From contig CM097888.1 of NCBI GenBank assembly GCA_044892525.1, forward strand, positions 71,424,001 to 71,488,000: 64,000 nucleotides of DNA, given 5' to 3'. This stretch comes from Schmidtea polychroa. Taxonomy: Eukaryota. This document shows, in pieces, positions 1 to 50,277 of this stretch. Under the pieces are notes generated by a model that saw nothing but the letters and a program-made list of their open reading frames with translations, did not search any database and was not told where the DNA came from. The position numbers were made by a program, and so were the translations under genes. Each line of letters begins with the position of its first letter. The stretch's first letter is position 1.

Positions 1-273
1 CCAAGCGGATTAAATAAATAATCAGTTTCATCGACATAGAATTTCTCTCACAAACAGTAATCTCTTCCTTTTCCTTGTGCGAAATCTGGGTTGATTGATT
101 TATCTTCTTATAATTAAAGCCCCGAAAGGGTACGAGAATCCATCGCGTAGTAGAACTTGTCCTGACTGGTAAACCCTTATTTTTGTCTATGATCAGTACA
201 GTATGAATGTAGTCAGGTGGTGACGCTCCCGCTGATTTAATTATTTTCATTTTCTTTTTCACAGTCGCTCAAA

Positions 274-1023
274 ATGTTGCCAAATTCCAAGCCCGTTCTT
301 CGACCTTGTTTTTCTTGCTCCGACAAGAATTCAATTATCAAAGAGCTCCAGGCCCAAATTGGCAAGCACAAAAGAAGGATAGATGAGTTAGAGGGGACAT
401 GGTTTAGTCCCACCCAGATGAAGGAGGCTCAGAAGAAGCTGCACCGAAGCGAGCACTGTAGAGACGCGTTGATTTCCGAGAGTCGGGCGCAGAGGAGCCT
501 GATAAAAGAGCAGTCGGAGGCGCTGCACAAATTGTACGTCCAGGCCGCAACTACAAGGAAGATCGCGAAGATCCCGATTAACGAAGCCAGTAACCTTTTC
601 CCAGCACATCATGATATCTCTGGCGGGTCTTCTCCTCCAGTCGGAAAGTCCTGCCATGGGTGCGTAGAGACCGAGCTCTCACCTAAAGGACCAGAAATCA
701 TCTTTACCGGAACCAGTAAAGTGCTACCTGCGATAGCATCCACCTCAGCAGCACCCTCGACCAACCAAACAGCATCGAAGCCAAAGCGTCGACAATTATC
801 GAGAGCAGAACGAAAGAAAAAACAGCGGGAACGCATAACCGCCAAACAGAACCAGCAATCGTCGGATCATCCAATCAAAGTCATCAACCCCCCTGCAGCA
901 ATCGATTTAGCACCAGTGATCTCAGGGCGAATCATCTCCGCCGCTGGTGTTACCTGGGAGGAAAACGCCTCTGAGTTTTTCGATTTGGAAGATCTATTGG
1001 CAGACTCGGAGTGGGAGAAATGA
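274..1023 (+). CDS. Uncharacterised 249-aa LTR-borne protein (CxxC, coiled coil, second CxxC, basic segment, acidic/aromatic C-terminus)
   Basis: Open frame with a homolog at 38322-39034 that differs mostly at synonymous sites. Predicted 5'UTR intron 169-264 (CTG|GTAAAC...TTTTTCACAG|); AATAAA about 135 nt after the stop. Confidence 0.8.
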   Translation: MLPNSKPVLRPCFSCSDKNSIIKELQAQIGKHKRRIDELEGTWFSPTQMKEAQKKLHRSEHCRDALISESRAQRSLIKEQSEALHKLYVQAATTRKIAKIPINEASNLFPAHHDISGGSSPPVGKSCHGCVETELSPKGPEIIFTGTSKVLPAIASTSAAPSTNQTASKPKRRQLSRAERKKKQRERITAKQNQQSSDHPIKVINPPAAIDLAPVISGRIISAAGVTWEENASEFFDLEDLLADSEWEK

Positions 1024-1314
1024 GAACTTCCCCGTAAAAAGTCTTCGTTCTCTGAATTGACCTGAACATTGTCTGATAACATTTTACCTTGTCTCTTTTC
1101 CCGTTGTCGTGAACTTTATTGTATAGGTGTTAGATATATTTGTGTGATAATCTTAATAATAAACCATTTTTGTCTGCATACGTTCTTTTTGTGTTCATCT
1201 TAAGACAGTTGAGTTGAAATTGGTAAATGGTATTGAGAGTCATAAAATTATGAGGAGCATTAGTCAGTTGGTAAACTCAGCTAGAAATATTGCGATGGGG
1301 CGACGGAATGAGTA

Positions 1315-1587
1315 GACGTAAGTCCTTCTATCGGCAGTCAGGGTTGGGAAGTCGAGGCCTCAGTAAGGAGTAGTCCGAAGGAGCTGGCTCACCTGCTTAC
1401 TGGCGTCTCGCCGGCATAGCACAGTTCCAACGTGAAGCAATTCACGGGTGCTATGTTGGAGTGTAAGTTATGTACGGGTCCCGCTCGGCGATGACCAAAT
1501 AAATGACGGGCGAAATCGAGGTGGGCATTCATCCTCTAGACTAAAGCTGCACTAGAAAGGGGTCATCCGAGTAGTGTACCCGCAACA
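1315..1587 (+). ncRNA. Conserved structured RNA motif, copy A (class unknown)
   Basis: GAC-GTAA-GTC hairpin; CAGTAAG/CTTACTG helix; CATAGCAC(1415-22)/GTGCTATG(1448-55) helix enclosing CGTGAA-GCAA-TTCACG. Covaries with copies B, C and D. Confidence 0.55.
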
Positions 1588-8747: not shown

Positions 8748-10238
8748 TGTTGGGCTGGAACCGAGAATTGAGAGTTTGTTTTAATGAATTGGAAATACAT
8801 AACATAAAAACCGCACCAAGTTAAATTAAAATTCACCAAATAATGCAAAATAAAGTACATAACACATTGAAGATAAATAAAACACGTATAATAAAATTAA
8901 GAACGCAAGAAGTTGGAATCACTAACACAGTTAAGAGAAAAATAAAGCATTAAAAAAAATCTATTAATTAGAAAAATAAAAAAATAATAAATAAATTTAA
9001 AATTGAAACTAAAAAATTTTCCAGTAAAACTGATAAGAATTAGAATAAAATTGGTTAAAATTATGTAAATCATGAAGTTGATAGAATTAAACGGTTGAAA
9101 TTAATAAAAAATTAAAATAAAACTACCTAAAAATATTTAAATTATAAATTTATAAAATTAAATTGTGAAAATTAATAAAAATTAAAAATTTTTGATTAAT
9201 TAAATTAATTAAATTAAAAAATAAATAATAACACACAATCATGTATGTGTGCAAAAGAAATTCAATGCTACTACATTTTAATTGGATATAGTAGCAGAGA
9301 ATGCGTAGGCGTACAATCAAAGTCGGTATAAATACCGATGGAAAATTCATTTAAAAGAACCAAAACTAACTACGACCACAAAAACAAGATCTTATTTTAT
9401 GCAGCTCTCAGTTTTTCGTTCTATGTCATCGTAGTAAGTTGGATTTGATTTTTAGTAATTTCATGTAAATTGTAATTTTATGTAGGTCATAATTTTATGT
9501 AATATCATGATTGAATAAAACTTTAAATTTAATTTAGTTTAGTTATTTTTTTTGTAATATTATTTTTTTTGTTTATTTCGTTCTTGAATTTTTAGTCATT
9601 TTATGAAATTTTGATGATTTATTGATGCCCCCAGATTGGAATACGTTTGTGGGCCGATGACACTCGTGCTCATGAACAGCGGATATTGACCAGTTTGGCA
9701 CATCATTTTTATGAAGTATAGTTAGAGATAGGATTGTTAATATTATAGAATCTACGAGTGGTTAGGATGTCAAATAGGTCAGAATTGGAAATATAGGCAG
9801 ATCCCTGCTCAAATTTTTTGAAATATAAGTTAAATATTCACAAATGTCACGGAAAATGCATAGTAACATTTATTAATAGGAAAATAAGGGCGGATACCTG
9901 CGAAAAATTTGAAGACAACGTTAGAAAACATCCAGTAAGGAGGACCATAATTACATGAATCAACAACAATAATCTAAGAAATAAATAGATAATGAATAAT
10001 GAATTAAGACCTTCTATCGGCAGTCCGGAACCCGAAAGGAAAATACAATGAGTAGTTTTAGCAATAAAGCTCACCTGCTCATTGATTTTCAACCATTGTG
10101 TACAGTACCAACATGGTCGTCGCCATGGGTACACAAATGGTAATAATCATGAAAGCGTTTAGGAAGGAATTGCGGAAAGATCCATAAATACCCCTAATCA
10201 TTTAAAAATAAAATGACACACCCTTAAGCGATCCAACA
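8748..10238 (+). mobile_element. Solo LTR, copy C (1491 bp), gypsy-like
   Basis: TGTTGG...CCAACA termini with 4-bp TSD TAAT on both sides. Order is A-rich block, TATAAATA at 9327, T-rich block, then the structured motif near the 3' end. Confidence 0.85.
10006..10141 (+). ncRNA. Conserved structured RNA motif, copy C
   Basis: CCTTCTATCGGCAGTC; CAATGAG/CTCATTG helix; AGTTTTA-GCAA-TAAAGCT hairpin; GCTCACCTG; GTGTAC/GTACAC helix with 8-nt bulge AGTACCAA and CATGG/CCATG hairpin. Confidence 0.5.
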
Positions 10239-33600: not shown

Positions 33601-36600
33601 TTTCCATTCAGTTCCATTAGTTTACGCTTGAGTTCCCTGAGCAATTGAATTGGTTTTTGGTCACCAAATTCTTGTTTCTGCAGCAATTTGTTGGCAGCCT
33701 CTGTTGTCGAGCCTTTTGATTCCATGATTATTGCATCTTTTAACGTCGAATACGGCAGTTTGATTTATGAGTCCAATAAAACCGAGTATTCTTCGAGGAT
33801 TCTTGGTGGTAGACTGGTGGGGAGATGAAAATATTTTGATTTTTCATTTTTCATTGATGCCAGCTCGAGTGCAGCGTCAACTTGTTGGAACCACGCTACT
33901 ACGTTGTCGAAGAAAATCGGTATCTTCATCTGGATGTGACTACTTTCATGAGCCACACTTCTGACACCAATGTTGTCATTTTCAGAATACATTATTTAGA
34001 AACAACACATTTTTAGAATTTGTGAATCTTTATTTTTATTACATATTTAAACATATTTATTACCTAGTATTTATAATAATTATTTAATTGATTTGGCTAC
34101 AATTATTAATCAGATCTCATATGAATATTTGTAAATATCCTAATTTATATGTTCAAAAATTAACAAGAATAAACATAGACTTCTTAAAGTGCAAAAAAAT
34201 TTAAAAGGTTATTAAATTTATAAAATTAGTAAAATTCAATTAAATATAACAACGTTGACGTTACTCTCAGTGACCAGTGAGTCGTAACTCGGATCACACA
34301 AGGTATCTCAATTAGTAGTATAAACGCCTTATTAACCATTCGTACATCAAGAAGAATGGATTAAATTTTTTCGTCACGCACCAAATTTGCTGTCAATTGA
34401 TACATTTTGTAATTGTTCTATTAAATATAATTTTTTGATAAAGGTAAATTTTAAGACATAATTTAAATTATTAATCTATGGTCATTAAAAAAATAAAACA
34501 TGAAATAAAGGACATTGTTCAGATTCCTATGCGAACCTCTATACAAATAATTAAGATAGGATTTATTAGCCTTTTTGAATCCCAAATGAAGGACTATATA
34601 AATTCGATGCAAATAAGTTTTTCCCGGACCTAAGATATTACGCTACTAGCACCACAAACTGATTGCAATGGAACTATTGGAAATTAGAACAGATCAAAAT
34701 TAAGACGAGTTTCATTTTAATCCTCTTGTTTCAACATCTATATAATGAAAACAGTTCTAAACTGTAGTTTTTTTCTATGCAGCAAAAATATGATCCATTG
34801 AAAAATGCAATGTAAGGATTTTCTAAACCAATGATTAATTCAAATCTGTAGATCTGCATTTACATTGCCACCATTACTTTTATAATTTCCTGAAGTAAAT
34901 CAGTGGATTTAGTATCTTGTATAATAGCCATAATTTCTCAAGCAATATATTTAGATTGACAACTCTATGGGTCAACATGATCCTCATAAAATCCCTTCGG
35001 AGAAGTAATAATCACCCAATGAACTTTCTATCGAGCTCGTGACAGTCGTCCTTCACGCAATCGCACTTTGCATATTCTTCCATTAACACCAATGCGTTTA
35101 ATTTCTTTGTTTTTTGTTCAGTGACATGTGATAAAAGTATGTCTAAAAAGATTACGTTGCTTTCGTAATTTTACTGGTTTAAGTAAATATTCTTGTATGT
35201 ATTTTAGACAAGCATTAAATACTTTACAAGCACTGCAGTTTTCAATGGTTGAAAAGTGAGTTTTTCAACGATGTATTCATTTACTTTCATTACAATACTT
35301 ATTTTGTTTCTGTGCTTATCAGAAAAGCAGTTGCAGCTGCAAAATCAACACTTTAAAGGGTGTAATCCATGATTGGGAGCACATTTGATTAACTGTAAAA
35401 AAAGAAGTAATTTTCTGTCAGGATAATTTAAGACACGAAACAATTTTAATTTTTAAAGATTTTTTTATTAATATTAATTTAAGTTTAAAGTCCCTTCAAC
35501 TAAACGGATTTAGCACATCGAAAAGCTTAATTAAGGCCGCGAAATTAGTGCCACCACTATATTTGAATATATTTTATGTGTATTGAAAGTATTGGTAAAA
35601 TCTAACTAAGTCATTATTAAATGGTGCTTTTTATCTGCAAAAATTTATTAAAGCGCGTATAACACAGTATAGATGTGTTGGGCTGAGTCGAAGACTTAAT
35701 TGTTAAAAAATAGGAAAATAAGAAAGCAGGACGTTAAAGGAAAATAAAAATAAAATAAACGAAATTAAGAATAAAATAGAAATAAGAAATAAGAGAAACA
35801 ATAATTAGAACATAAGAATTAAAACAAAATAAAAATAAGAAAAATTAAAATAAGACAATAGAATGACGAACAAAATACTGAAAAATGCAACAAATAATGA
35901 GAAAATTAAAGAAATAAATAAAAAAAAATATAATAAAAATAAGAAAGGAAGAAAAAATAACCAGAAAACAGGAAAAAATAAATTAAATTAAGAAAATAAG
36001 CGGTACTCAATTCTGATTGGTCCGCATACATTCAAAAATACTATATAAGCAAACATAAAAATCATAAACATACCGTTAATTTCAATATTCAATAGGTAAG
36101 CAAATTTATTAGAAAGACCGTTAATTTCAACATTCAATAGTTAACTCAAACACTTTACCAACGACAACAACTACTTACAGAAAACTACGAGGAACCGAGA
36201 CAACATTTGAGAACTATCCAGATTTACAGCGAACAGCCTAATTTTCAGGAACATTCGATTTGAATTTTTGACTCAGCTCAGCATCTAGTATATTGGTAAG
36301 CCGAACTTTTATTTAGAATTTTAGTTTACATTAAAGTAATTATGAAGGCTGAATTATAGTAAATTCTTTATTAAACAACTCTTCATTTGATTCCACATTT
36401 AGTAATTTTTAATGTTTAACAAAATTTACATGTCTGAATATCACAGAATTAATAAATGATTTTTATCTAGATTTCTATGTTTTATTATTTGCATTAAATC
36501 TTTTATGAATTTTTATTTGTTGAGTAACGTGGAGTTGAGATACTCCATGTCATGGTGTGAGGTGCCTTCGGGAGCTCAGCCGGTGGACATGGAGTATTTC

Positions 36601-39600
36601 AATCACGCAGCTAGATTGGGCCGAAATGTGAAGGCTTCTTCACGGGTCCAATTGCTGAAGATGCGTCTAAATTATAGAAACCGAGTATTCTAGAAAAATG
36701 ATAGCCAGACAGTGATCGACAGGACAGATGTATAACTGAATGAAAGTATTTTTGAGGATTTGCGCAGTGATTGAGGGCGTCACATTACAACTTCATTTAG
36801 TCGTTTTCATGAGCTTTACAACATCTAGGTCAGCCGAAAGAAATCCATGCAACTATTCAGTAAATTCGTAAAAATTTAGTGTCGCCTCATAGTGTACATC
36901 ATCTGAAAAACATAGTTCTACCAAATTAAGCATTGCAACTTCTATTTTCCGAACTCCGTAACAATAGTTTAGAATAAAATTTTGTCGTCGTACACTCAAT
37001 TTCTATAAGTCTGTCCAGAATGTATATTATATTAAAACTCCAAAATATTATTAAATTCCAGAAAATTAACTAATTTAAAAAGAATTATAAAAATATAAAA
37101 TACCACAAAAATCCATCTGATGACATTTATTTTTCACAAAGAAAGCCAGCTCATCACCATGTCTACCCAAATTTCCGAATATATAATGTCTGGGGAAAAA
37201 ATTGTGAAAGGATAAGAGTAAATTTCATGGAGACATTATTCCATCTGAATAAGAAAATCTGAGTTTAGGGTAGCGTAGAGAGTAAATTTCCAATAAATTT
37301 CCAAACGATGGTGATGGTTCACACGAGTTGATGATGATAAAAATTCCACGATGAGACCTGACAGTAGCATGGATTATAATTCCGGTGAACCACTTTTCAG
37401 TAAAAACCATGCGACATCAGGAACGACAAAATCTCTGTGGAAATGGCACATACCAAGCAAATGAGATAAGATAGCAGTAACAGCACACGAGAGTCCGTAT
37501 GACGGACACACAGAATACTGGATAGGCATGCATAGTGACCACGAGTAATAGTATCTACAGAAGGTAGATAATGCAATCAATTAGTCATCATCCGTAGTAG
37601 CGAATTTTAACCTATGTCGTGCCCGATGAAATTTTCCGTCTCTGCGAGATAATGTAAAGTAAGCGTGTTAGGATAACAGCTGACGTGAGATCATTACACA
37701 TATGTTGAAAATTTTCCAGACGTTCTCTCAGATAAAGAGTAGTTATTGCAGATAACAAGATTAACTGTCAAATCAGCAGAGTACATTTACCAGTAAATCG
37801 CGAACTAAAATAGGTTGAAGGATAGTGATGGTTTCACACTAGTTATTTTAACGAAATGTATGTATTTTCGATAAATTAAAATAAATATTCTACCAAAATT
37901 CTGATTGAGTATCATAATATCATTGTTACTAAAGCGTTAGTATATTACATTATCAGTGTCATAACTATAATATTATTAACCATTACAAACCCTCAAGTGT
38001 AACATTAGACTAGTAGAATATAACAGGGGGAAGATTTTTTGAGAAAGTGATCAGCGCCGATATAGTGTAACGAGTGAGTGAAAGGGAATTCAGTGGAAAT
38101 CACATACCCTTATTTAAAGAATTTCGGGAACAAGAATCAATTGCATTCGTCAAGTCAATGACCTCTAATTAAACAAAATTTTTCTGTAAATAAGAACTGT
38201 AGTAGAACCGGACCGTAAAATGGGTTTTTCTTCTTTTCATCTGTCAAGTAGCCCGTTGGTCGTATTTAATTTGTTTTTAAACTTGCATATTCTACATTTC
38301 AATCTTACCGTTACAGTGATCATGATGCCAACTGCCAAGCCCGTGTTACGTCCTTGCTTCTCATGCTCGGATAAAAACGCCATTATCAAGGACCTGCAGA
38401 CCCAGGGACTTGGTTTAGCCCCGCTCAGATGAGAGAGACCCAGAAAAAGCTCTATCGCAGCGAACATTGTCGGGACGCTTTGATCTCCGAAAGCCGTTCC
38501 CAAAGAAGCCTGATAAAGGAGCAGTCCGAAGCACTGCATAAAGTTTATTTGCAGGCAGCGACCACTAGGAAAATAGTGAAAATCCCAATCAGTGACGCCG
38601 ATAACCTCTTTCCGGCACACCATGATACTTCCTCAGCATCGTCGCCTCCTGCTAAGAAGTCGTGTAGCGGGTGTGTAGAGACACAGCTCTCGCCAAAACA
38701 ACCCGACATCATCTTCGTGGGAACAAGTCAAGCGCCTCCTGTGATAGCTTCTGTATCCACTGCACCGCAATCTAGCGCATCGACATCAAAGCCAAAGCGT
38801 CGGCAGTTATCCCGAGCCGAACGCAAAAGGAAACAGCGTGAGCGAATGACCGCCAAGCAGAACGTACAACCAACGGAGCTCATAAATGAAGCCAGTGTTC
38901 CTTCGGCAACAACGGATCCAACGTCAGGGGTCTCCGGGCGGATTATTTCTGCTGCGGGAGTGACTTGGGAGGAGAATGCCTCCGAGTTTTTCGATTAAGA
39001 GGAGCTGTTAGCAGCTACAGAGTGGGAGAAATGAGAAGGCTCCCGTAGGATAGTCCTGTTGTATGGCAAACAGTTGAACTAAAAAAAAATCATCGAGTTT
39101 TTCTTAATTATCTTTCTCGTCTTGATGTTTTCTGTTGTATGTAACCCATAAATGTTGTATATGTTCAATACAAATAATAATATATAATCTTGAGTTTCTT
39201 CATTGTTTTATGTGTGATAGGTTTGGTATGACAATAATGATAAGGGTGGAAAGTTCTCGAGATTCTAGAAATATTAGTCAGCCGCATTTCAACCAAAGGT
39301 AGAAAGGTGAAGTCAGAGTTTGATTTAGACGTAAGTCCTTCTATCGGCAGTCGAGAGTGGGAAGTCGAGGCCTCAGTAAGGAGTAGTCCTAAGTAGGGGC
39401 TCACCTGCTTACTGGTGTCTCGCCAGCATGGTGCAGCACCAACGTGAAGCAATTCACGGGTACCATGTTGGATGGCAGGTTATGTGGGGTTCTGCTCAGG
39501 GTTGACAAAGCAACGGCAAGTATAATCGTAATGGACACTCATCTCCTAGACTGAAGTGGGATTATTGGTAGTCAACCGAGTAACACCCCAGCAGATGCAA

Positions 39601-41040: not shown

Positions 41041-41558
41041 TTCTCTGAAACTGTACTGAAAATTTATGCAAATTACTAGATAATAAAATTAACCGCTATT
41101 TATATTGAAGTATTAACTGACAAAAATGTTAACAATGTGTCATGACCTTGAAATATAAAACCGATACATTTTAACACATAAAATAGAATTTTTACCATTA
41201 CTAATTATATTAATTTTTATATAATTTTGACAATATTTTTTAAAGATTAATATATCTATTTTATAAACTTTCTGCTATTGTTTAATTTTAAATATACTTA
41301 AAATTTGAGGTTATTGCATCTAAATGGTTCGTTTTAGAAATATAGAAAAATTTTTACCATTTATAAATTTTCGTTTAATATTTATTTTTATCTTGATATT
41401 AAACAATAAATAAAATTTAACATGAATTTTTAACACGTATTATGAAATCCTAGTGGTACTGTTGGCATTTAAAGGGTGTGTCGTTTAAATGTTCTAGGGT
41501 TATTTATGAATTTTGAATCGACTCTTTCCTAAACGCTTTCATAACTATTTTACTTTAT

Positions 41559-41704
41559 ACCATTTGCATACTCATGGCAACAACCATGTTGATGATTGTA
41601 CATAATGGCTGATGACCAATGACCAGGTGAGCTTTACTACTAGAACTACTCCTCATTGAATTTTAATTTTCAGGTTCTGTACTACCGATAGAAGGACTTA
41701 CGTC
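41559..41704 (-). ncRNA. Conserved structured RNA motif, copy D
   Basis: GACGTAAGTCCTTCTATCGGTAGT, CAATGA/TCATTG helix, GCTCACCTG, and a CATGG-TTGTTG-CCATG hairpin in a bulged helix. Confidence 0.5.
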
Positions 41705-42193
41705 ACTGTCCATTATTTATCCCTTTCTTAGATTATTGTCCTTCTTTATTTATTTAATTATAGTCCTCATTACTGGATGTTATTCAATCTTACCTTCAAA
41801 AATTTTGCGCAGCAATCCGCCCTTATTTTCCAGTTCATAAATGTTGTTCTATATTTTCTGTGCTGTTTTGTGAAATCTTTCTGCCACATTCTCCGCTTGC
41901 TTTTATAACCCTCTGCAACTACTGAGATTCATTCAATTATACAAAATCTCTAGATTCTATTTCCATTCTAGTCTTTCACATGTTTACATTTGATTTTTTT
42001 TATATTACGATTCGAAAATAAAACTCACGCCTATCACTAATTTGATAGAAATAGCTCTATCTAATTCTACTTCGCTAAATCGACAGAAATTGTGTCAGCA
42101 ATTGACCCAGTAGGCCATGATAAGCACTGCCCCGAATCAAGCTTACGGATGATTGAAGTATCACCTGATCCATTGGGTAAGAGGAAATGTAAC

Positions 42194-45100
42194 CAGTGGC
42201 GTATCTAGGGTTCACGGCGCCCGGGATAAAACTTAATTTTTTCTTTTCCTTATTATTGGTATATTATTTTTGCACTAAAGTGACATTTCTTTTTTAAGAA
42301 AAAAAAATTATTATTTAAAAAAAATCAAAAATTTTCACTCTTTAAAATTGATTTGCAGCAGTTTTAAAAAAAATTAATTTAATTTTGCAACAAGTTAGTT
42401 TTAAACTTTATTTATTGTAATAATTTACAAACAAATTTTTCGTGCTTTAACACTTGCGAACTTGTCAATGACATCATCAAAGTTAATTTTGTTCACAGTG
42501 TTTTTCTCAATACTTAATAATGCCAAATTATTTAAACGTTCTTCACTCATTGTTGCTCGAAGATATGACAAAATTAATTTTAATTTGCTAAAGGAACGCT
42601 CGCATGTTGAAACAGAAATACCAATTGTCAAAAGAATTTGCAATGAAATTCTTAAATTTGGGAAAACATCTTCACCATAAGATATTAAAAATTTTAAAAG
42701 ATCTATGTGATTTTGGAATTTCATCTTTTCGAGCATTAAGAAGCATTTTACAGTCAGTAACTTCATTGCATAGTTCGTTTTCATCAATATCTGAATTGTA
42801 AAATTTTCCCAAATTTGAACATTTTTCTTTTAATTTAGCAGGATCATGGCAATTTAGAAAATTTTCAGTGTCAAGGAAATATCCAAAATTTTCATTCAAT
42901 GAATTAAGGCCAGTAAATCGAGTTTTTAATTCTTGAATTAATCTATCAACTGAGCATTTCAACACACAATCTAACTCTTGTTCAGCAGTCAAACCAGAAT
43001 CAGTCATTTTTTCACCTAATCTAATTTTTATACGTCGCACTCTTTTCTTTATTTCAACGCCCCATTCAAAACACTTTTTTTTACCTGCTTCAATTGATTG
43101 AATGCATAGATCTTCAAGAAATTGCTGCATATGTATGCTTAATCCTTGTAAATCATCGGAGGCATCTTTAAAATTAATTTTTGGATCTTGCATTCGTTTT
43201 TGTACACGATCAATTTTCTCGAGAACGTGATGCCAAAAATTTATCAAAACCAGAAAATTAAAATTCAATATATTTTGCAATAAATTGTATGATTCGCTTC
43301 TTGTGTCAGATGTTTGATTGAAATCATCAGAAAGATCTTCAATTAATTTCACAAGATTGTCGATTCCAATAAAAATTTCTTTTACAGCTTCTGCTCGTGC
43401 ACTCCATCGTGTGGTTGATTCACGTTTTACAGTCAAAGGAATGACATCGGTTAATTTTTGCCAACGATTGGTTGATCTTGAAAAAAATAAATAAATTTGT
43501 TCAATTACACCAAAAAATGTTAGCATTATGGGATTAGTTTGAACAGAATGTAATCCTGCAAGATTTAAACTATGATTATCGCAGTTAATAAACACTGCGC
43601 GAGGGTTCAATTTGGTAATTCTTTGTTGCAATCCAGAAACATGACCAGCCATAACTGCCGCATTATCATAACATTGCGATCGACAGTCCGAGAGTTGTAA
43701 TCCATCAGTTTGTAATAATTTGAGTATAGTATTTTTAAGAGCTTCGGCATCTTTTTCAGCTAGCTCAATAAATCCCAGAAATGATTCCTTAATTTCCACT
43801 GTTTTTTTTATCAAAATCTATTTCAACGTGACAAATAACTTCTGAAAATTGTTCACGATGTTGTAAATCTGGAGTAGAATCAAATATCATGCCAAAGTAT
43901 TTGCTTTTTTTAATATTTTCAATCAAAACATTTCGAACTATTAAAGCTAAAAGGTGAATAAACTCATTTTGTATGCCTGGTGATAAATAAGATGTTGTTC
44001 CTGGATGTAAACGAGAATGTTCCATGTGACTTGCCAAAAGTGGATCATATTGCGCAATCAATTGTAAGAGACCCAGAAAATTACCTGGATTGCCTTCTGT
44101 ATTCAACAAATTTTCATTATAACCACGTAATGCTAAATTATGAAATGCTAAGAATTTTATGCATGAAAGAAATCTTTTTAAAATTTCTCTCCATCGATCT
44201 TTTTCCAACAATATTTGAGCTTGAACTTCCATATCGAATCCAGCACCTTGAGACAATCTTCGTTCAGTTTCTTTCCATGTTGTAAAATTCTGACGGTGTA
44301 TAATATTATTTTCATGATCATTTACTCCTTCTGAATGCTTAAAATCTCTAAAACCAGCCGGTGAAAAAAATGCAGTTTTACAAAAATCATTATAAAATAA
44401 CAAACAACAAAAGCAGAAAAGTGTTTCTTTATGAGGCGAATAAATTAACCAAGATCGATTAACATATATACCAAGGGTGGGCACGCATGGGTTCAATAAG
44501 AGCCATTTTCCGAAAATTTATTTTTTACAGAGCCACCATAGTAAAGTACATATTTTTTTTTATTTCATTAATTTGATTAAAGAGACTTAAACGCTATTAA
44601 AAAAAACAAAATAATTATTTCAAACATTAAGTAACAAACATAAAAATCCATTAATAAAAAGTAATAAAATTTCTTGAATTAACGAAGACTTTTGGTCAAA
44701 TCTTTGAAATTTGGTGTATACTTTGTTAAAGCTGTTCGCAGCAATTCTGTAAGATGCTGATTGGTCAACTATGAACGATATTTCGACTTTACGAACTTCA
44801 TTGTGGAGTACAAAGATTCACAACAATATGTTGTACAAAAAATTGAAATTAGACGGCAAGCAGCTTGTTTTAAGTGTGGATATTTTGCCTCTGGTACGAG
44901 TTTCCAAAATTCAACTATAGAAGTAGATTTATGGTGCATTTGCAAAGCCTGGTCCTCTTTCATATCTAATAACTCCAATTCCCCAACCGCTTTTTTAACA
45001 AGTATTACTTCAGAAATTGGAAATCCATCTTCAATAATATCACAAATAAATGGGTTCACAAAAAATGCAAATGTAGATTTATAACTTTTCAAATCTTCAA

Positions 45101-47799
45101 ACCTACATTTGAAATCCGCTTGCAATTCTTCCAATTTTTCACTGTATTCGTTTACTTTTTCTTCTGTAATATCAATTATATTAGCTTTTATTCGTTGAAA
45201 ATGATTAAATATTTTCGACCTAAGATCGTTCACAAAAAGCCGAAGTTTAGCTTCAAAACTAAATAACGTTTGTGACAAATCAATAATTATCTTTTCTTTT
45301 CCTTGTAAAGCCAAATTTAATGTTTGCAAATGTTCCATAATGTCTGTAAGGAACATTAAGTCAGAAAGCCAAGTTTCATTTTCTAATTCTGGGTATGCTA
45401 TTCCGTTTTATATTATGATAGGATTTAGGAGTTCCACAAAACGGTTCAAAACATTGTAAGTTGACAGCCATCTAACAATACACCATAAGGAGACATCATT
45501 AGGCAAATCATCTGTTTCGTCATTTAATCTTAATTCTTCCAAAAAGTTTTTAAATTGACGATGTGTTTTGGCATTTGTTCTAATTAAATTCACAATCTTC
45601 AAAACAATCTTCCACACATTTTCGTATTTAAAGTACTTCGCTATGAGATGCTCGCGATGAATTATGCAGTGAAGAGATAAAAAGTGAGGAATATTAGGAT
45701 CTCTGTTTAAAAGACCAATGAGACCTTGATTTTTCCCCATCATTGCAGGCGCTCCGTCTGTCGCAACACTTACAAGTTTGTCACGAGCCAATTCGAACCT
45801 GTCCATAACTACATCAAGCGCAGTTTTGACATCGATACCGCGAGTTGTTTCGAGAAGAGCTACTAGGTCTAACATTTCTTCCTTCACTTTTACGTCAGAA
45901 GATACAAAGCGGACAAAAACGGCTAATTGTGGAACATCCTGAATGTCAGTAGACTCGTCGAGAGCTAAACTGAATGCTGTACAATTTTTTAAATCACACA
46001 TCAAATTATTTTCAACATTTTCGCTAATTTGGCCAATTCGACGCTCAGTTGTACGACGTGAAATAGGAATACGTGAGATCAATTTATGTAGTTTTGAGTT
46101 GTCCGGATCCAAAACTTTAATCACTTCTTCCAAGTTTCTCTTAATAAATTCACCTTCTCCATATGGACGTTTAGCACGAGCTATATTCCAAGCTATCAAA
46201 AAACTAGCTTCGTAGGCACTGTCATCTTCTCGACTAAAAGTAGATAATAGTCCTTGTTATGCTTGAAGCCCTGATTGCAATGACTTATGTTTTTCTGTCC
46301 GCAAGTTTGAATTGAGTGGATATTGAATTGATAAGTGTGGATGACTTACTTCATAGTGTCGACGTAAATTGGTTACTTTGTAGTTGGAAATTGTACCTTT
46401 ACAAATAAGAAAAAAACTTTTCTGTCCATTCTTCTTGAAAAGTTCTATTTTCTTGTCTGTATTTTCGTTTTTTGATGTTTTCTGATGTCATTATAATAAT
46501 AAATTTAAATAACTATATCGCTGAAATTTAAACAAAATAATAAAAAGACATTAATTTAATTTTAATTAGTTTAAAATTTTAAAATGCTTCATAAAAAAAT
46601 CTTCTTACCAAATTTTTCAAAAAACACGAATAGAAAACTATACTAAAATATACAAACGACCGCAATCTTGTACAAACAAAATAATAACCAATCAAAATTC
46701 ACTAAATTTATTTTTGATGCTTCTCTCTCGTTGTTATAACAAAGCCCCGCCTACTACAAAATAATTTTAAAAAGCAGTAAAATGTGAAAAACAATGTTTC
46801 GTTAATTTTTGACATTTATGAAAATACAATTGCAACAAAAAATTTTTTCTCAAAACATTTAGTGAAAAATTTCAAAATAAAAAATCGAATTCGATTATCA
46901 AGAATTCAATTATCAATGAGCCGCAGTTTACTCAACGAAGAGCCGCATTTGCCCACCGTTGATATATACCGTTTGCCAACTTCTTCTTAAACCATGATGA
47001 TGTAATTGAACGTCCATTATGCACTGCAAAGCTTCCTTTATTATTTTGAAATAAACTCGGGCCACGTAAAATGACTTCAGTTCTTAGTTTTTGTGAAACT
47101 ATTGGACTGAATTAATGAAAACTTTCTTGAAATTCCAAATATACAAAATCATTGAACAAAAGCAGATTCGGAATATTTTCTGAAATTGTTGAAAGACATG
47201 ATCTATTGTTGGATTCAGTCATTTCATAATCAAAATCCGACTCTTCATTGTTTTGTGAGGCATCAAAATCAAAAAATTCATAATCTGACTGCGGCATATG
47301 TTTGTCTTCTTTAATATCCTCTATCTGGTCATTTTCTTCAACTTTTTCCTTTTTTAAATAATTTTGCAACATTTGACTTGACTTTTTAGCTTCATTTCGG
47401 AATATTCTGGCCTTTTTACGATTTTGTGCGCCACTTAATTTCGGTTTCGGCATCTTTGATATTCTAAAGTTTGAAAGTTTTTTCAAATAATTTTGAGCTT
47501 AACAAATAATTCTATAAATCTTACGATTGAGTTCTGGATATAACTCAAATTTCATGTATTTTGGAAAGGCTTTGAAATATATAAACAAAGTTCACCATAA
47601 AATTTAAATTAAATTTAAATTTTATGGTGAACTTTGTTTATATATTTCAAATAATCAAAATTCGTTATTTTAATGTTGGTTAAATTTCAAAATCGAAAAT
47701 CTTTAAATAAAGTTTAGGTTTCAAAAATCAATTTGGCGCCCCTAAAATCGTGGCGCCCGGGGCAAATGCCCCGCTTGCCCGGCCCTAGATACGCTACTG
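42194..47799 (-). mobile_element. hAT element, Tip100/ZMYM1-like, near full length but frameshifted and interrupted
   Basis: 17-bp TIR CAGT(G/A)GCGTATCTAGGG and perfect TSD AATGTAAC. Transposase pieces at 47112-47486, ~46970-47100, 43789-44471, 42672-43814 and 42425-42787: FCFCC, DSTPD, YDNAAVMAG, CDNHSLNL, TRWSAR, CERSFSKLK. Confidence 0.93.
44472..46961 (-). mobile_element. Buster/SPIN (GTF2IRD2-like) hAT element (2490 bp) nested in the Tip100-like element
   Basis: TIR CAA(G/C)GGTGGGCA and perfect TSD ATATATAC. ORFs 45408-46199 (FSLALDESTD, TDGAPAM, HCIIHRE, VRWLS) and 44769-45356 (TTYCCESLYS). Confidence 0.92.
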
Positions 47800-50277
47800 A
47801 ATGTAACCCCTTTGCCCTTGACCAACGTAACCCTCAGTTCATCAATATTTATTAATGTTACTCAATACAAATTAAAATTTAAACTGGAAACGAATAAAAA
47901 AAACAAAAAAAAGTAAATCGAACGTGAAAATTTATTAACTTAAAAATTACTTCATGATTAAAAATTATTTCATACAAAACAAACTTACCACAAGTGCATA
48001 AAATTCATAAGAACCAAAAAAACTGAGAGCAAGTTAGCAATGAATTTTCAGTCGGTATTTATACTGATTTTAGTTGTCTGCCTATGCATTTTCTCTGCCA
48101 CTCTATCCAATTGGAATGCGTGCAATTTTGATTTACTATACACACATACACGAGTGCATGCATTTCACATTTAATTGATTGATATAATAAAATAAAATCA
48201 ATGGGGGTCTATAGAAGGAATTAATCATAAAAAACTAAAATTAATTAAAAATTAATTAGCTAATGGAGAACTCGAGCTAATGGAAAACCGGAGACAATAG
48301 AAACCCGAGCGATGTGTGAGAGAACCTGAATCAAATCAGTAGAGGCAATTAAATTAGCCGACAAAAAATTAAATTGGGAGAAGCTGTCAGAGGAGACGAG
48401 CAAATTCCTCAAAGTAATTAGAGCGAAAAAAGGAAGCCCGAAGAAAATTGGATCCGAAATAATTTAACACAGTAAAATCAAATTACGAGATGGGTATAAA
48501 AGCGACCGGTAAGTAAACAGAATTTCTAGTGGGTTAAAAAAAGTTAAACGAACAATTTAGGGAGAGTAAACAAAGAAAACTTTGGACTTAGTGTTAACCG
48601 AATATTTTCAAATCGAGAAAACCAGAAAGGGACATCTCCCTTGGAAGATTAATCCCTACGCAAGATTTACATTGGTATTGAAAAGTGCAGAGCAAAAAGA
48701 GTTGTTTTAGGTGTGGTTGTGTAAATAAAAATTGTAATAAAAGTGTAATTGTATTAGATTTTTGTGTTTGATTGTTTAACTTACTTTCAAAGGACACCAA
48801 GAAGTCAGATCGTGATACCGACTTGCACAAAATACCCAACATTATTAATTTTTTTTTTATTTATTATTCTTTTGTTTTCGAGTTGACAGATTTTTTAATG
48901 CGTTATTATTCTCTTAACTGTGTTGGTGATTGCAACTTCCTGCATTCCTTCAATTTTTTACTCGTGTTTTATTTATTCTCAATGTGTTGTGTACTTTACT
49001 TTATATTATTTGGTGTATAATCATAGATTTTAACTCAACTTAGTGCGATTTTTATACTATGTATTTCCGACTCATTAAAGCAAGCTCTCAATTTTTGGCT
49101 CTAGCCCAACAGTATAAATTGTTCGCATTTATGCGCATTTATGATAGGAGCATCGACCTCAAAAACCTGGAACCTCATCACATCCGTCGTTAAATGGCCG
49201 AATGGACAATTAGTATTTATGATATGTTGGATGATGTGTATAGGCTCATCACCACATTTTTCCTAGAAAATTATTACAGGATGGAGCCAAATAAATATCG
49301 AATTAACATACATACTGAAGGGCGCTAATAAACAGAACAGTTATTCCCCAAGCCAACAACAATTCGATTAGATGATAATTCAATGATCCAATCGAACAAT
49401 TATCTATCGTGAATTGATTTGTAAATAATGACTCTTAGGACATTTATTTGAGATTTTATTATTTGTAATAATATACAATCTATTTATTATTTGTTATCTT
49501 TACTTTTTTCAAGAAACTTTATTTATATTATTCGTTGATAAAAAAACTAACTAAGTAAATTTTTAAAAAAATAATCAAGAAAGGTAGATTAATTAAGGCA
49601 ATTAAGGAAATCAGCTATTAAGTATATTAGGTTAATTAAGTAAAATTTTAGTAAATCAGTCAAGAAATCATCTATTGATAAGCGAGTAACTAAAATAAAG
49701 ACATAAGCATAATAATAATAATAATTCTTAATGAATCTAACTCTTGAAATGAGCATTTCTATAATAATCTGTAATAATAAATGATTAAAATTAACTCTCG
49801 AAATAATTTAATAAGCGCAATTAAAAATATTCTTGAAATAAAATAATAAAATTCTTTCTTGATATAATATAATTCTTTTCCTGATATAGGAATACAACAC
49901 TTGGAAATAACATAATTCTTTTCTTATACTAACAGCTGTACAAAATTTGTATAAATAGAGACACGAAATCAGTATTGTTCGTCCAAAAATCTTTACATTG
50001 ATTCCTGAGTCTTGCAGAGTTCAACTACACGAAATTTTAAACATTTAAAGTGCCAAAGAAAAATGTCTTACACATAGTATTTGCATGCAGAAATAAAGTA
50101 AGAATAACACAACATATACCAATTTACATAACACTCACGATCGTTGTAAATTTTGAATTTGAAAAGATAAATCGAAAGTTTGAAAAGTATTCGTGGGTGT
50201 CAATTTGCTCGGTAAATTTTTAATATTAATAATATTAATATTAACTTTTTCAATTTTCACCACTGATTTCTTTTCAA

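Follow-up and report, generated by a model that had tools for sequence, protein, structure and literature searches.

A conserved three-helix RNA in the LTRs of giant Burro1-like retroelements of Schmidtea polychroa, a candidate 5'-leader element upstream of a tRNA-Pro primer-binding site

Introduction

Burro1, or GYPSM1, of Schmidtea mediterranea is an LTR element of more than 30 kb that encodes a single polyprotein of about 4,700–4,900 residues, in which Gag and its CCHC knuckles are separated from the PR-RT-RH-IN region by an envelope domain, and in which ankyrin repeats are also present (PMC6431247). The accessible part of that report describes the element by its proteins only and gives no RNA structure for the LTR.

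Contacts between a primer tRNA and its template beyond the primer-binding site (PBS) are described for other retroelements. In HIV-1, the available sections of one source list extended contacts between an A-rich loop and the anticodon, and between the PAS and the TpsiC arm (PMC11251516). In Ty1, pairing with the primer outside the PBS is attributed to boxes 0, 1, and 2.1, of which box 2.1 is given as unconfirmed in particles in the accessible text (PMC3592414).

Here we describe a structured RNA motif in the LTRs of Burro1-like elements of Schmidtea polychroa. The analyzed window is a 64-kb stretch of contig CM097888.1 (positions 71,424,001 to 71,488,000), and all coordinates refer to this window unless the contig is named. 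An earlier note on the same DNA had proposed a multi-hairpin RNA in four copies, A to D, at the 3' end of LTR-like units.

Results

Copy A lies in the 3' LTR of a gypsy element of 30.3 kb that is Burro1-like, carries env, and occupies contig positions ~71,395,250–71,425,587. The two LTRs of this element are 99.98% identical, their ends read TG...CA, and the insertion is flanked by a 4-bp target duplication. A 4,732-aa open reading frame encodes, in order, gag, zinc knuckles, env (a fusion glycoprotein), PR, RT-RNase H, IN, and ankyrin repeats. Size class, domain order, and the presence of a MATH/TRAF accessory frame are like those of Burro1/GYPSM1 as far as that element is described in the accessible text (PMC6431247), a likeness of architecture. 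The long frame starts 2.8 kb past the PBS, behind a short RING-type frame. This RING-finger-like frame, read by eye, lies immediately 3' of the PBS and 2 kb ahead of the long ORF.

The 3' LTR is 4,147 bp long, starts 2.56 kb left of the window, and ends within it (1–1587, plus strand). It contains an ORF of 249 aa (274–1023, plus strand) with an Arg/Lys-rich stretch and an acidic C terminus. No Pfam family matched the protein, and a protein atlas gave no lead (best 0.83); we regard it as a candidate accessory regulator. The ORF sits behind a splice-acceptor-like site. An AATAAA at 1158–1163 (plus strand) is followed by U/GU-rich sequence and is a likely poly(A) signal. An AATAAA also lies 90–185 nt upstream of the motif in 10 of the 26 copies listed, and another is found at LTR position 725–860 in groups I, II, and IV of the LTR classification given below. 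Directly after this conserved AATAAA, at LTR position ~860–1000 (window ~36,540–36,680 in LTR B), there is a second conserved stretch with two hairpins. Group I LTRs and one LTR of group II share it at 80–91% identity. It folds at -44 to -52 kcal/mol and is possibly another RNA element.

The four copies were found where the earlier note had placed them. A 14-mer matches at 1325, 10011, and 39338 on the plus strand and at 41681 on the minus strand; when up to two mismatches are allowed, these are four matches in the 64-kb window against 0.46 expected, and none of 100 shuffles reaches four. A covariance model recovers exactly copies A to D at 107–143 bits, with the next best match at 9.4 bits or less, a scan in which three of the copies are training rows of the model and A is near-identical to a fourth. 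The units that carry the copies, described before as LTR-like, are all true LTRs. Copy A belongs to group I. LTR B, a solo LTR of the same group (35676–39593, plus strand), ends with a GATG duplication and has its core at 39324–39474 (143 bits). Solo LTR C (8748–10238, plus strand; core 9997–10143, 124.7 bits) has TG...CA ends and a TAAT duplication and belongs to group II, a non-autonomous lineage. Solo LTR D, also of group II (41460–49111, minus strand; core 41557–41708, 107 bits), has ATAC/GTAC as the duplication at its ends and is interrupted by nested DNA transposons; its 5' part (48039–49111) mirrors C, with transposase-like frames between the parts. Several such frames, which we take to be hAT-like, are nested in LTR D between 42,200 and 48,000. 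Copies C and D are partly decayed.

The arms of helices H1 and H2, GCTCACCTG, the 8–9-nt bulge, and the single purine opposite it were read as described earlier. The claim that GCTCACCTG is invariant does not extend to all groups; the part common to all of them is GCTCAC. Likewise, the flanks are unalignable between groups as stated before but not within them, since A and B are 71–81% identical over several blocks and C is 67–73% identical to its own group. The proposed GNRA loops did not hold up as conserved features. GCAA caps H2 in 6 of 29 non-redundant copies. Of 69 distinct 5' strings, only 14 form the GUAA hairpin (GAC-GUAA-GUC) with its three pairs, so that this hairpin was rejected. 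Folding energy is weak for copy A (z -0.73 for 1313–1587 and -1.77 for the core) and for D (z -0.64), and is not convincing on its own for these two copies. It is strong for B (z -4.56) and C (z -4.31), and the opposite strand of C also reaches -3.4.

In the 781-Mb genome, the 14-mer has 3,382 exact matches compared with one for a reversed control, and for another word, taken from the loop of H2, the numbers are 4,839 and 14; as counts of exact patterns, these copy numbers are lower bounds. There are four main LTR groups (I–IV), whose LTRs are mostly alignable nowhere but at the motif. Among eight LTRs, that of group IV could be aligned with the rest at the motif only, through one 32-nt match, and that of group III aligned nowhere. 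The group I reverse transcriptase has 98% identity to its group IV counterpart and 86.5% to that of group III. In groups I and IV, near-identical internal genes are paired with very different LTRs, which suggests LTR exchange or fast LTR turnover. Homologues of the LTR ORF are 38–39% identical in group IV and are reduced to a 27-aa patch in group III.

Group II appears to be a young non-autonomous lineage of 15–20 kb with LTRs of ~1.6 kb and no pol or env. In three of three group II elements, RT, integrase, env, and any homologue of the LTR ORF were absent, while the motif and the PBS were kept; the LTRs of these elements are 99.3–99.7% identical over their main blocks, and target duplications are present. 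Because these non-coding, mobile elements retain the motif and the PBS, the motif would be needed in cis for mobility and not for the translation of pol.

The genome also contains a second abundant env-bearing gypsy family, a sister family of ~13.5 kb, with a 3,050-aa ORF, a tRNA-Phe PBS, and an RT that is 47% identical. Its LTRs gave no match to the motif model in eight regions, in four of which both LTRs were seen. This family has a short conserved U5 end with GAACC ~45 nt upstream of the PBS. Judged by these sequences, the motif fold appears to be specific to the tRNA-Pro-primed Burro clade and is apparently undescribed.

The core of the motif is predicted to comprise 145–150 nt in three helices of fixed order, P0-H1-H2, with narrow helix lengths and near-fixed loops. 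P0 was absent from the earlier structure. In copy A, the 5' part forms one hairpin with a 7-nt loop in place of the GUAA hairpin (1315–1339, plus strand), consisting of a 3-bp outer stem, a 4x1 internal loop, and a 3-bp inner stem with one bulged variable base. The third pair of the inner stem is formed in 67 of 69 distinct strings. In the outer stem, both sides change between groups I and IV, and a C-G pair becomes U-A in group III variants.

A T-loop is defined as a 5-nt loop from U to A on a stem, followed by one to three variable, extruded bases. The loop of P0 (1326–1332 in copy A) carries this signature, a fixed 5-mer followed by one or two variable bases, and is T-loop-like by sequence. 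The arrangement is 5+2 in groups I–III and 5+1, with any base, in group IV. The middle of the 5-mer is fixed in 63 of the 69 strings, whereas U at the first and A at the fifth position were requirements of the parse. Position 4 is U, unlike the purine found there in the T-loop of tRNA. The gap of a T-loop is reported, in the accessible portion of one study, to accept an intercalating base (PMC3764141).

A linker (1340–1352, plus strand), purine-rich in group I and containing GAACCC in groups II–IV including copies C and D, leads to helix H1 (1353–1410, plus strand). H1 has a 1x3 loop 16–18 nt from its base, in which U1371 faces C1390-A1391-C1392. The closing pairs A-U, G-C, and U-G are fixed, and the next pair varies among C-G, G-C, U-A, and A-U. 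Helix H2 (1411–1459, plus strand) has an 8x1 loop 11–12 bp from its base, in which 1423–1430, ending in CCAA, faces G1447. The apical loops vary freely.

Pairing was assessed on an alignment of 104 copies, reduced to 46 clusters and then to 36 representatives after ten truncated or decayed ones were dropped. In the proposed structure, 86.1% of 1,581 cells pair, compared with 73.0% for shuffled partners and 37–41% for slid partners. Both sides change in 29 of 45 pairs, a count that is not above shuffles (88/500). Relatedness was controlled by arranging 29 non-redundant natural copies into 14 disjoint nearest pairs, scored at 24 loop-anchored helix positions. These independent pairs contain 30 double changes against 16.6 ± 2.3 expected, a number reached in none of 5,000 permutations, and pairing is kept in 22 of the 30. 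Among 1,096 helix cells there are 98 G-U and 8 A-C combinations. The large excess of G-U over A-C points to sense-strand RNA, and not to minus-strand DNA or double-stranded DNA. The earlier proposal is supported in that the motif, located at the LTR 3' end, behaves as a functional RNA whose structure is under selection on this strand.

The parse behind the double-change and G-U counts demanded intact loops. For this reason, loop constancy was judged on PBS-adjacent copies, which were chosen without regard to the motif; GCTCAC is present in 53 and CCAA in 52 of these 54 copies. Covariation between loops was not seen in 21 feature pairs. An apparent covariation in group II between the extruded base of the T-loop and the H2 loop disappeared in independent pairs (one joint change in 35, p 0.84) and was discarded.

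In 5' LTRs, an 18-nt PBS lies 200–275 nt past the start of the motif and is the exact complement of the 3' end of host tRNA-Pro(UGG). There are 1,063 such sites in the genome, and each of the 30 that come first by position is preceded by the motif (90–148 bits), including seven group IV loci from outside the training set of the model. Among 19 candidates, no motif-bearing LTR with a non-Pro PBS was found. The last (18th) base of the PBS, which can record which tRNA-Pro isoacceptor primed, is of the tRNA-Pro(CGG) type in 19 of the 1,063 sites; these are spread over all groups, with CCAA kept wherever it could be parsed. Gene matches number 616 for tRNA-Pro(CGG) compared with at most 1,676 for the UGG type, and the bias of the PBS toward UGG may stem from tRNA abundance or from self-reinforcement. 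The genes for tRNA-Pro(UGG), tRNA-Pro(CGG), and tRNA-Phe form long tandem arrays of hundreds of copies; an exact pattern found no tRNA-Pro(AGG) gene.

Complementarity beyond the PBS was scored for five parts of host tRNA-Pro in 41 representatives, under rule-based group labels of which at least three are misassigned. Group I has a box that complements the D-arm (1528–1541, plus strand, 36–50 nt before the LTR end); the box is weaker in group II and absent from groups III and IV. The duplex reaches p ≤ 0.05 in 8 of 21 copies labeled group I and in none of the 20 others, a post hoc result obtained after five arms were tried and on related copies. Column conservation peaks at the box, at 0.84 compared with 0.60 and 0.57 in the flanks (17 copies). 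The GAACCC of the linker is the complement of nucleotides 49–56 in the T-arm and is the best T-arm site in 18 of 20 representatives of groups II–IV; T-arm duplexes are significant in none of the 41 copies, and the box is missing in group I. Duplexes with the anticodon loop and with the acceptor strand are each significant in 1 of 41 copies. The tRNA-complementary boxes are thus not universal, and they lie outside the fixed loops. The CCAA of the H2 loop is only 4 nt long and could equally pair with UUGG at the junction of spacer and PBS.

As in the HIV-1 U5/PBS region, candidate boxes upstream of the PBS complement the T-arm and possibly the anticodon loop of the primer, and one isoacceptor is favored (PMC11251516, as far as its accessible text describes the region). 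Unlike in HIV-1, the boxes lie 40–230 nt from the PBS, vary by group, and border a larger fixed core of three helices that includes a T-loop-like hairpin. Ty1 offers the same likeness of an LTR-retrotransposon RNA complementary to its primer beyond the PBS, but the Ty1 boxes are placed in the GAG region and accompany a 10-nt PBS (accessible sections of PMC3592414), whereas here the candidate boxes are inside the LTR and the PBS has 18 nt.

A search of the 64-kb window against Rfam gave no match at the gathering thresholds, and at E ≤ 10 none fell over the motif in 16 loci, copy A, or copy C. Copy A gave three chance snoRNA matches, all 3' of the core. The earlier note had likewise not matched the motif to hammerhead, HDV, twister, pistol, or group I/II cores. 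Presumed resemblances of words in the motif to HCV IRES, CTE, VS, lariat-capping, U1/U6, and group I elements were discarded, the words occurring in a single group.

A scan with the motif pattern gave no match in viral contigs or in metagenome contigs. Relatives of the RT were found in none of the viral contigs and in the metagenomes at 19 loci of 1.1–8.1 kb, where the best model score was 11.8 bits; these loci are uninformative about the motif, since most could not accommodate an LTR at their length. Nothing similar was thus found beyond this genome, in searches of weak power. Four public contig sets on the 5' LTR contained no ends and no interpretable splice joint and are uninformative either way. 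No published description of this RNA was found in the literature searched.

Discussion

The motif is probably a cis-element of the retroelement 5' leader. An AATAAA lies upstream of it in the same LTR, and the motif is therefore probably in U5, which would restrict it to the 5' leader of the genomic RNA. A cis-acting replication signal is suggested by the context of the motif, with a tRNA-Pro PBS downstream, and by its persistence in non-coding derivatives.

We tentatively favor, with a probability of about 0.4, a platform that would place the primer tRNA and the reverse transcriptase for the start of minus-strand synthesis. The leader with the motif would be the first RNA copied by RT. Annealing of the 18 3'-terminal nucleotides of the tRNA to the PBS would free the strand of the T-arm, which may then pair with the linker in groups II–IV, and the D-arm may pair with the downstream box in group I and partly in group II. 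A tertiary scaffold could be built from the two internal loops together with the T-loop-like hairpin, with the CCAA loop as a speculative partner of the UGG anticodon loop. Between groups I and III the loops are the same, the tRNA is common, and the RT is 86.5% identical, whereas identity is 47% in the zinc-knuckle region of the nucleocapsid and the LTR ORFs can scarcely be aligned. Because the loops are constant while the zinc-knuckle region and the LTR ORF diverge, the partner of the motif is probably a slow-changing one.

An alternative is a packaging or dimerization signal, with helices bound by Gag or nucleocapsid or paired between two genomes. Its position in the 5' leader and its retention in non-autonomous elements fit packaging equally well, and the H1 stem of some group I and III copies contains 8-nt palindromes. 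Packaging signals usually expose G-rich loops. Here the loops that stay fixed are rich in C and A and do not differ, whereas the groups have 36–47% identity in the zinc-knuckle region; the palindromes lie in stems and differ by group, and the apical loops vary freely. We consider a packaging or dimerization role unlikely.

A response element of the TAR, RxRE, or CTE kind would be recognized by the basic LTR protein or by a host factor and would promote poly(A) read-through, elongation, or nuclear export. The LTR protein of groups I and IV indeed has an Arg/Lys-rich stretch and an acidic tail, one or two AATAAA signals upstream in the LTR must be passed in the 5' LTR, and a splice-donor-like GTAAG occurs in P0 of groups I, II, and IV. 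However, the loops are unchanged although the LTR protein of group I has 38% identity to that of group IV and can hardly be aligned with that of group III; the donor-like word is absent in group III (27 of 69 strings are without GTAA), and Rfam gave no match to such elements. This makes the response element doubtful.

Catalysis appears less probable still. A self-cleaving ribozyme, either new or related to twister-sister, would cleave the H1 loop at its C-A step while the T-loop hairpin docks on that loop; as in retrozymes, cleavage in both LTRs would be followed by copying of the genome as a circle. The fixed small loops, the free stem sequences, and the narrow range of helix lengths are what a tertiary core typically shows, and ribozymes in LTRs are known (PMC4918200, available part). 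The long strand G-C-U-C-A and the short-strand Y-A-G match the lantern/twister-sister loop as given in the accessible text (PMC11620745), and a T-loop hairpin of twister-sister takes an A from that loop (bioRxiv 2020.11.26.399451, in part). The motif thus shares with these ribozymes the G-C-U-C-A strand opposite Y-A-G, seen as GCTCAC in 53 of the 54 PBS-adjacent copies, and a 7-nt hairpin of the T-loop type. It differs from them in its 1x3 loop, which follows from a pair below the H1 loop that covaries between G-C and A-U, in its topology, with the T-loop hairpin on the other side of the H1 loop, and in its extra 8x1 loop. None of 70 copies has the short-strand G-C (G36 and C37 of the LINE-1 ribozyme), and at position 12 there is a C, which is reported in the accessible text to leave the ribozyme almost inactive (PMC11620745). 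The Rfam models of twister-sister and all other ribozymes, among them hammerhead, hairpin, HDV-like, twister, pistol, hatchet, and group I/II, gave no match. Membership in the twister-sister family was rejected, as the short strand G-C-N-A-G together with A or U at position 12 occurs in none of the 70 copies.

A cut between R and PBS would, by an established mechanism, block ordinary first-strand transfer. A core scan was run with words for the hammerhead, hairpin, and HDV ribozymes. Hammerhead and hairpin words were absent from all 70 copies on both strands, and the HDV-loop word was present in 1 of 70 on the sense and 12 of 70 on the antisense strand. The motif is like retrozymes in being a conserved structured RNA in LTRs that non-autonomous elements keep (PMC4918200, available part), but it has no hammerhead core on either strand and is carried by autonomous 30-kb elements; identity with retrozymes was rejected on the absence of the hammerhead and hairpin core words. 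If the ribozyme proposal were true, a 30-kb env-bearing, retrovirus-like element would set its genome ends by RNA catalysis and be copied from a circle.

A second bold proposal is a eukaryotic T-box-like RNA that would select its primer through the UGG anticodon and lend the unwound tRNA a replacement T-loop. A translation (IRES-like) element for the downstream frames, or a DNA-level signal, is very improbable: the long ORF does start 2.8 kb past the PBS behind the RING-type frame, but non-coding mobile group II elements keep the motif, which argues for a cis replication signal and against an IRES, and the G-U to A-C ratio of 98 to 8 fits sense RNA rather than DNA.

The ends of gypsy LTRs are usually short and fast-diverging. 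In S. polychroa, about 5,000 copies, from LTR groups with little else in common, preserve a fold of ~150 nt whose three loops are near-invariant. Its model provides a single marker for the whole Burro clade, including its non-coding parasites, and the motif is a cheap candidate for a new ribozyme assay. The Burro lineage is reported, in the accessible part of one source, to be highly active in a regeneration model animal (PMC8532177). The motif offers a small, testable RNA for asking how retrovirus-like elements of invertebrates select a primer and position it.
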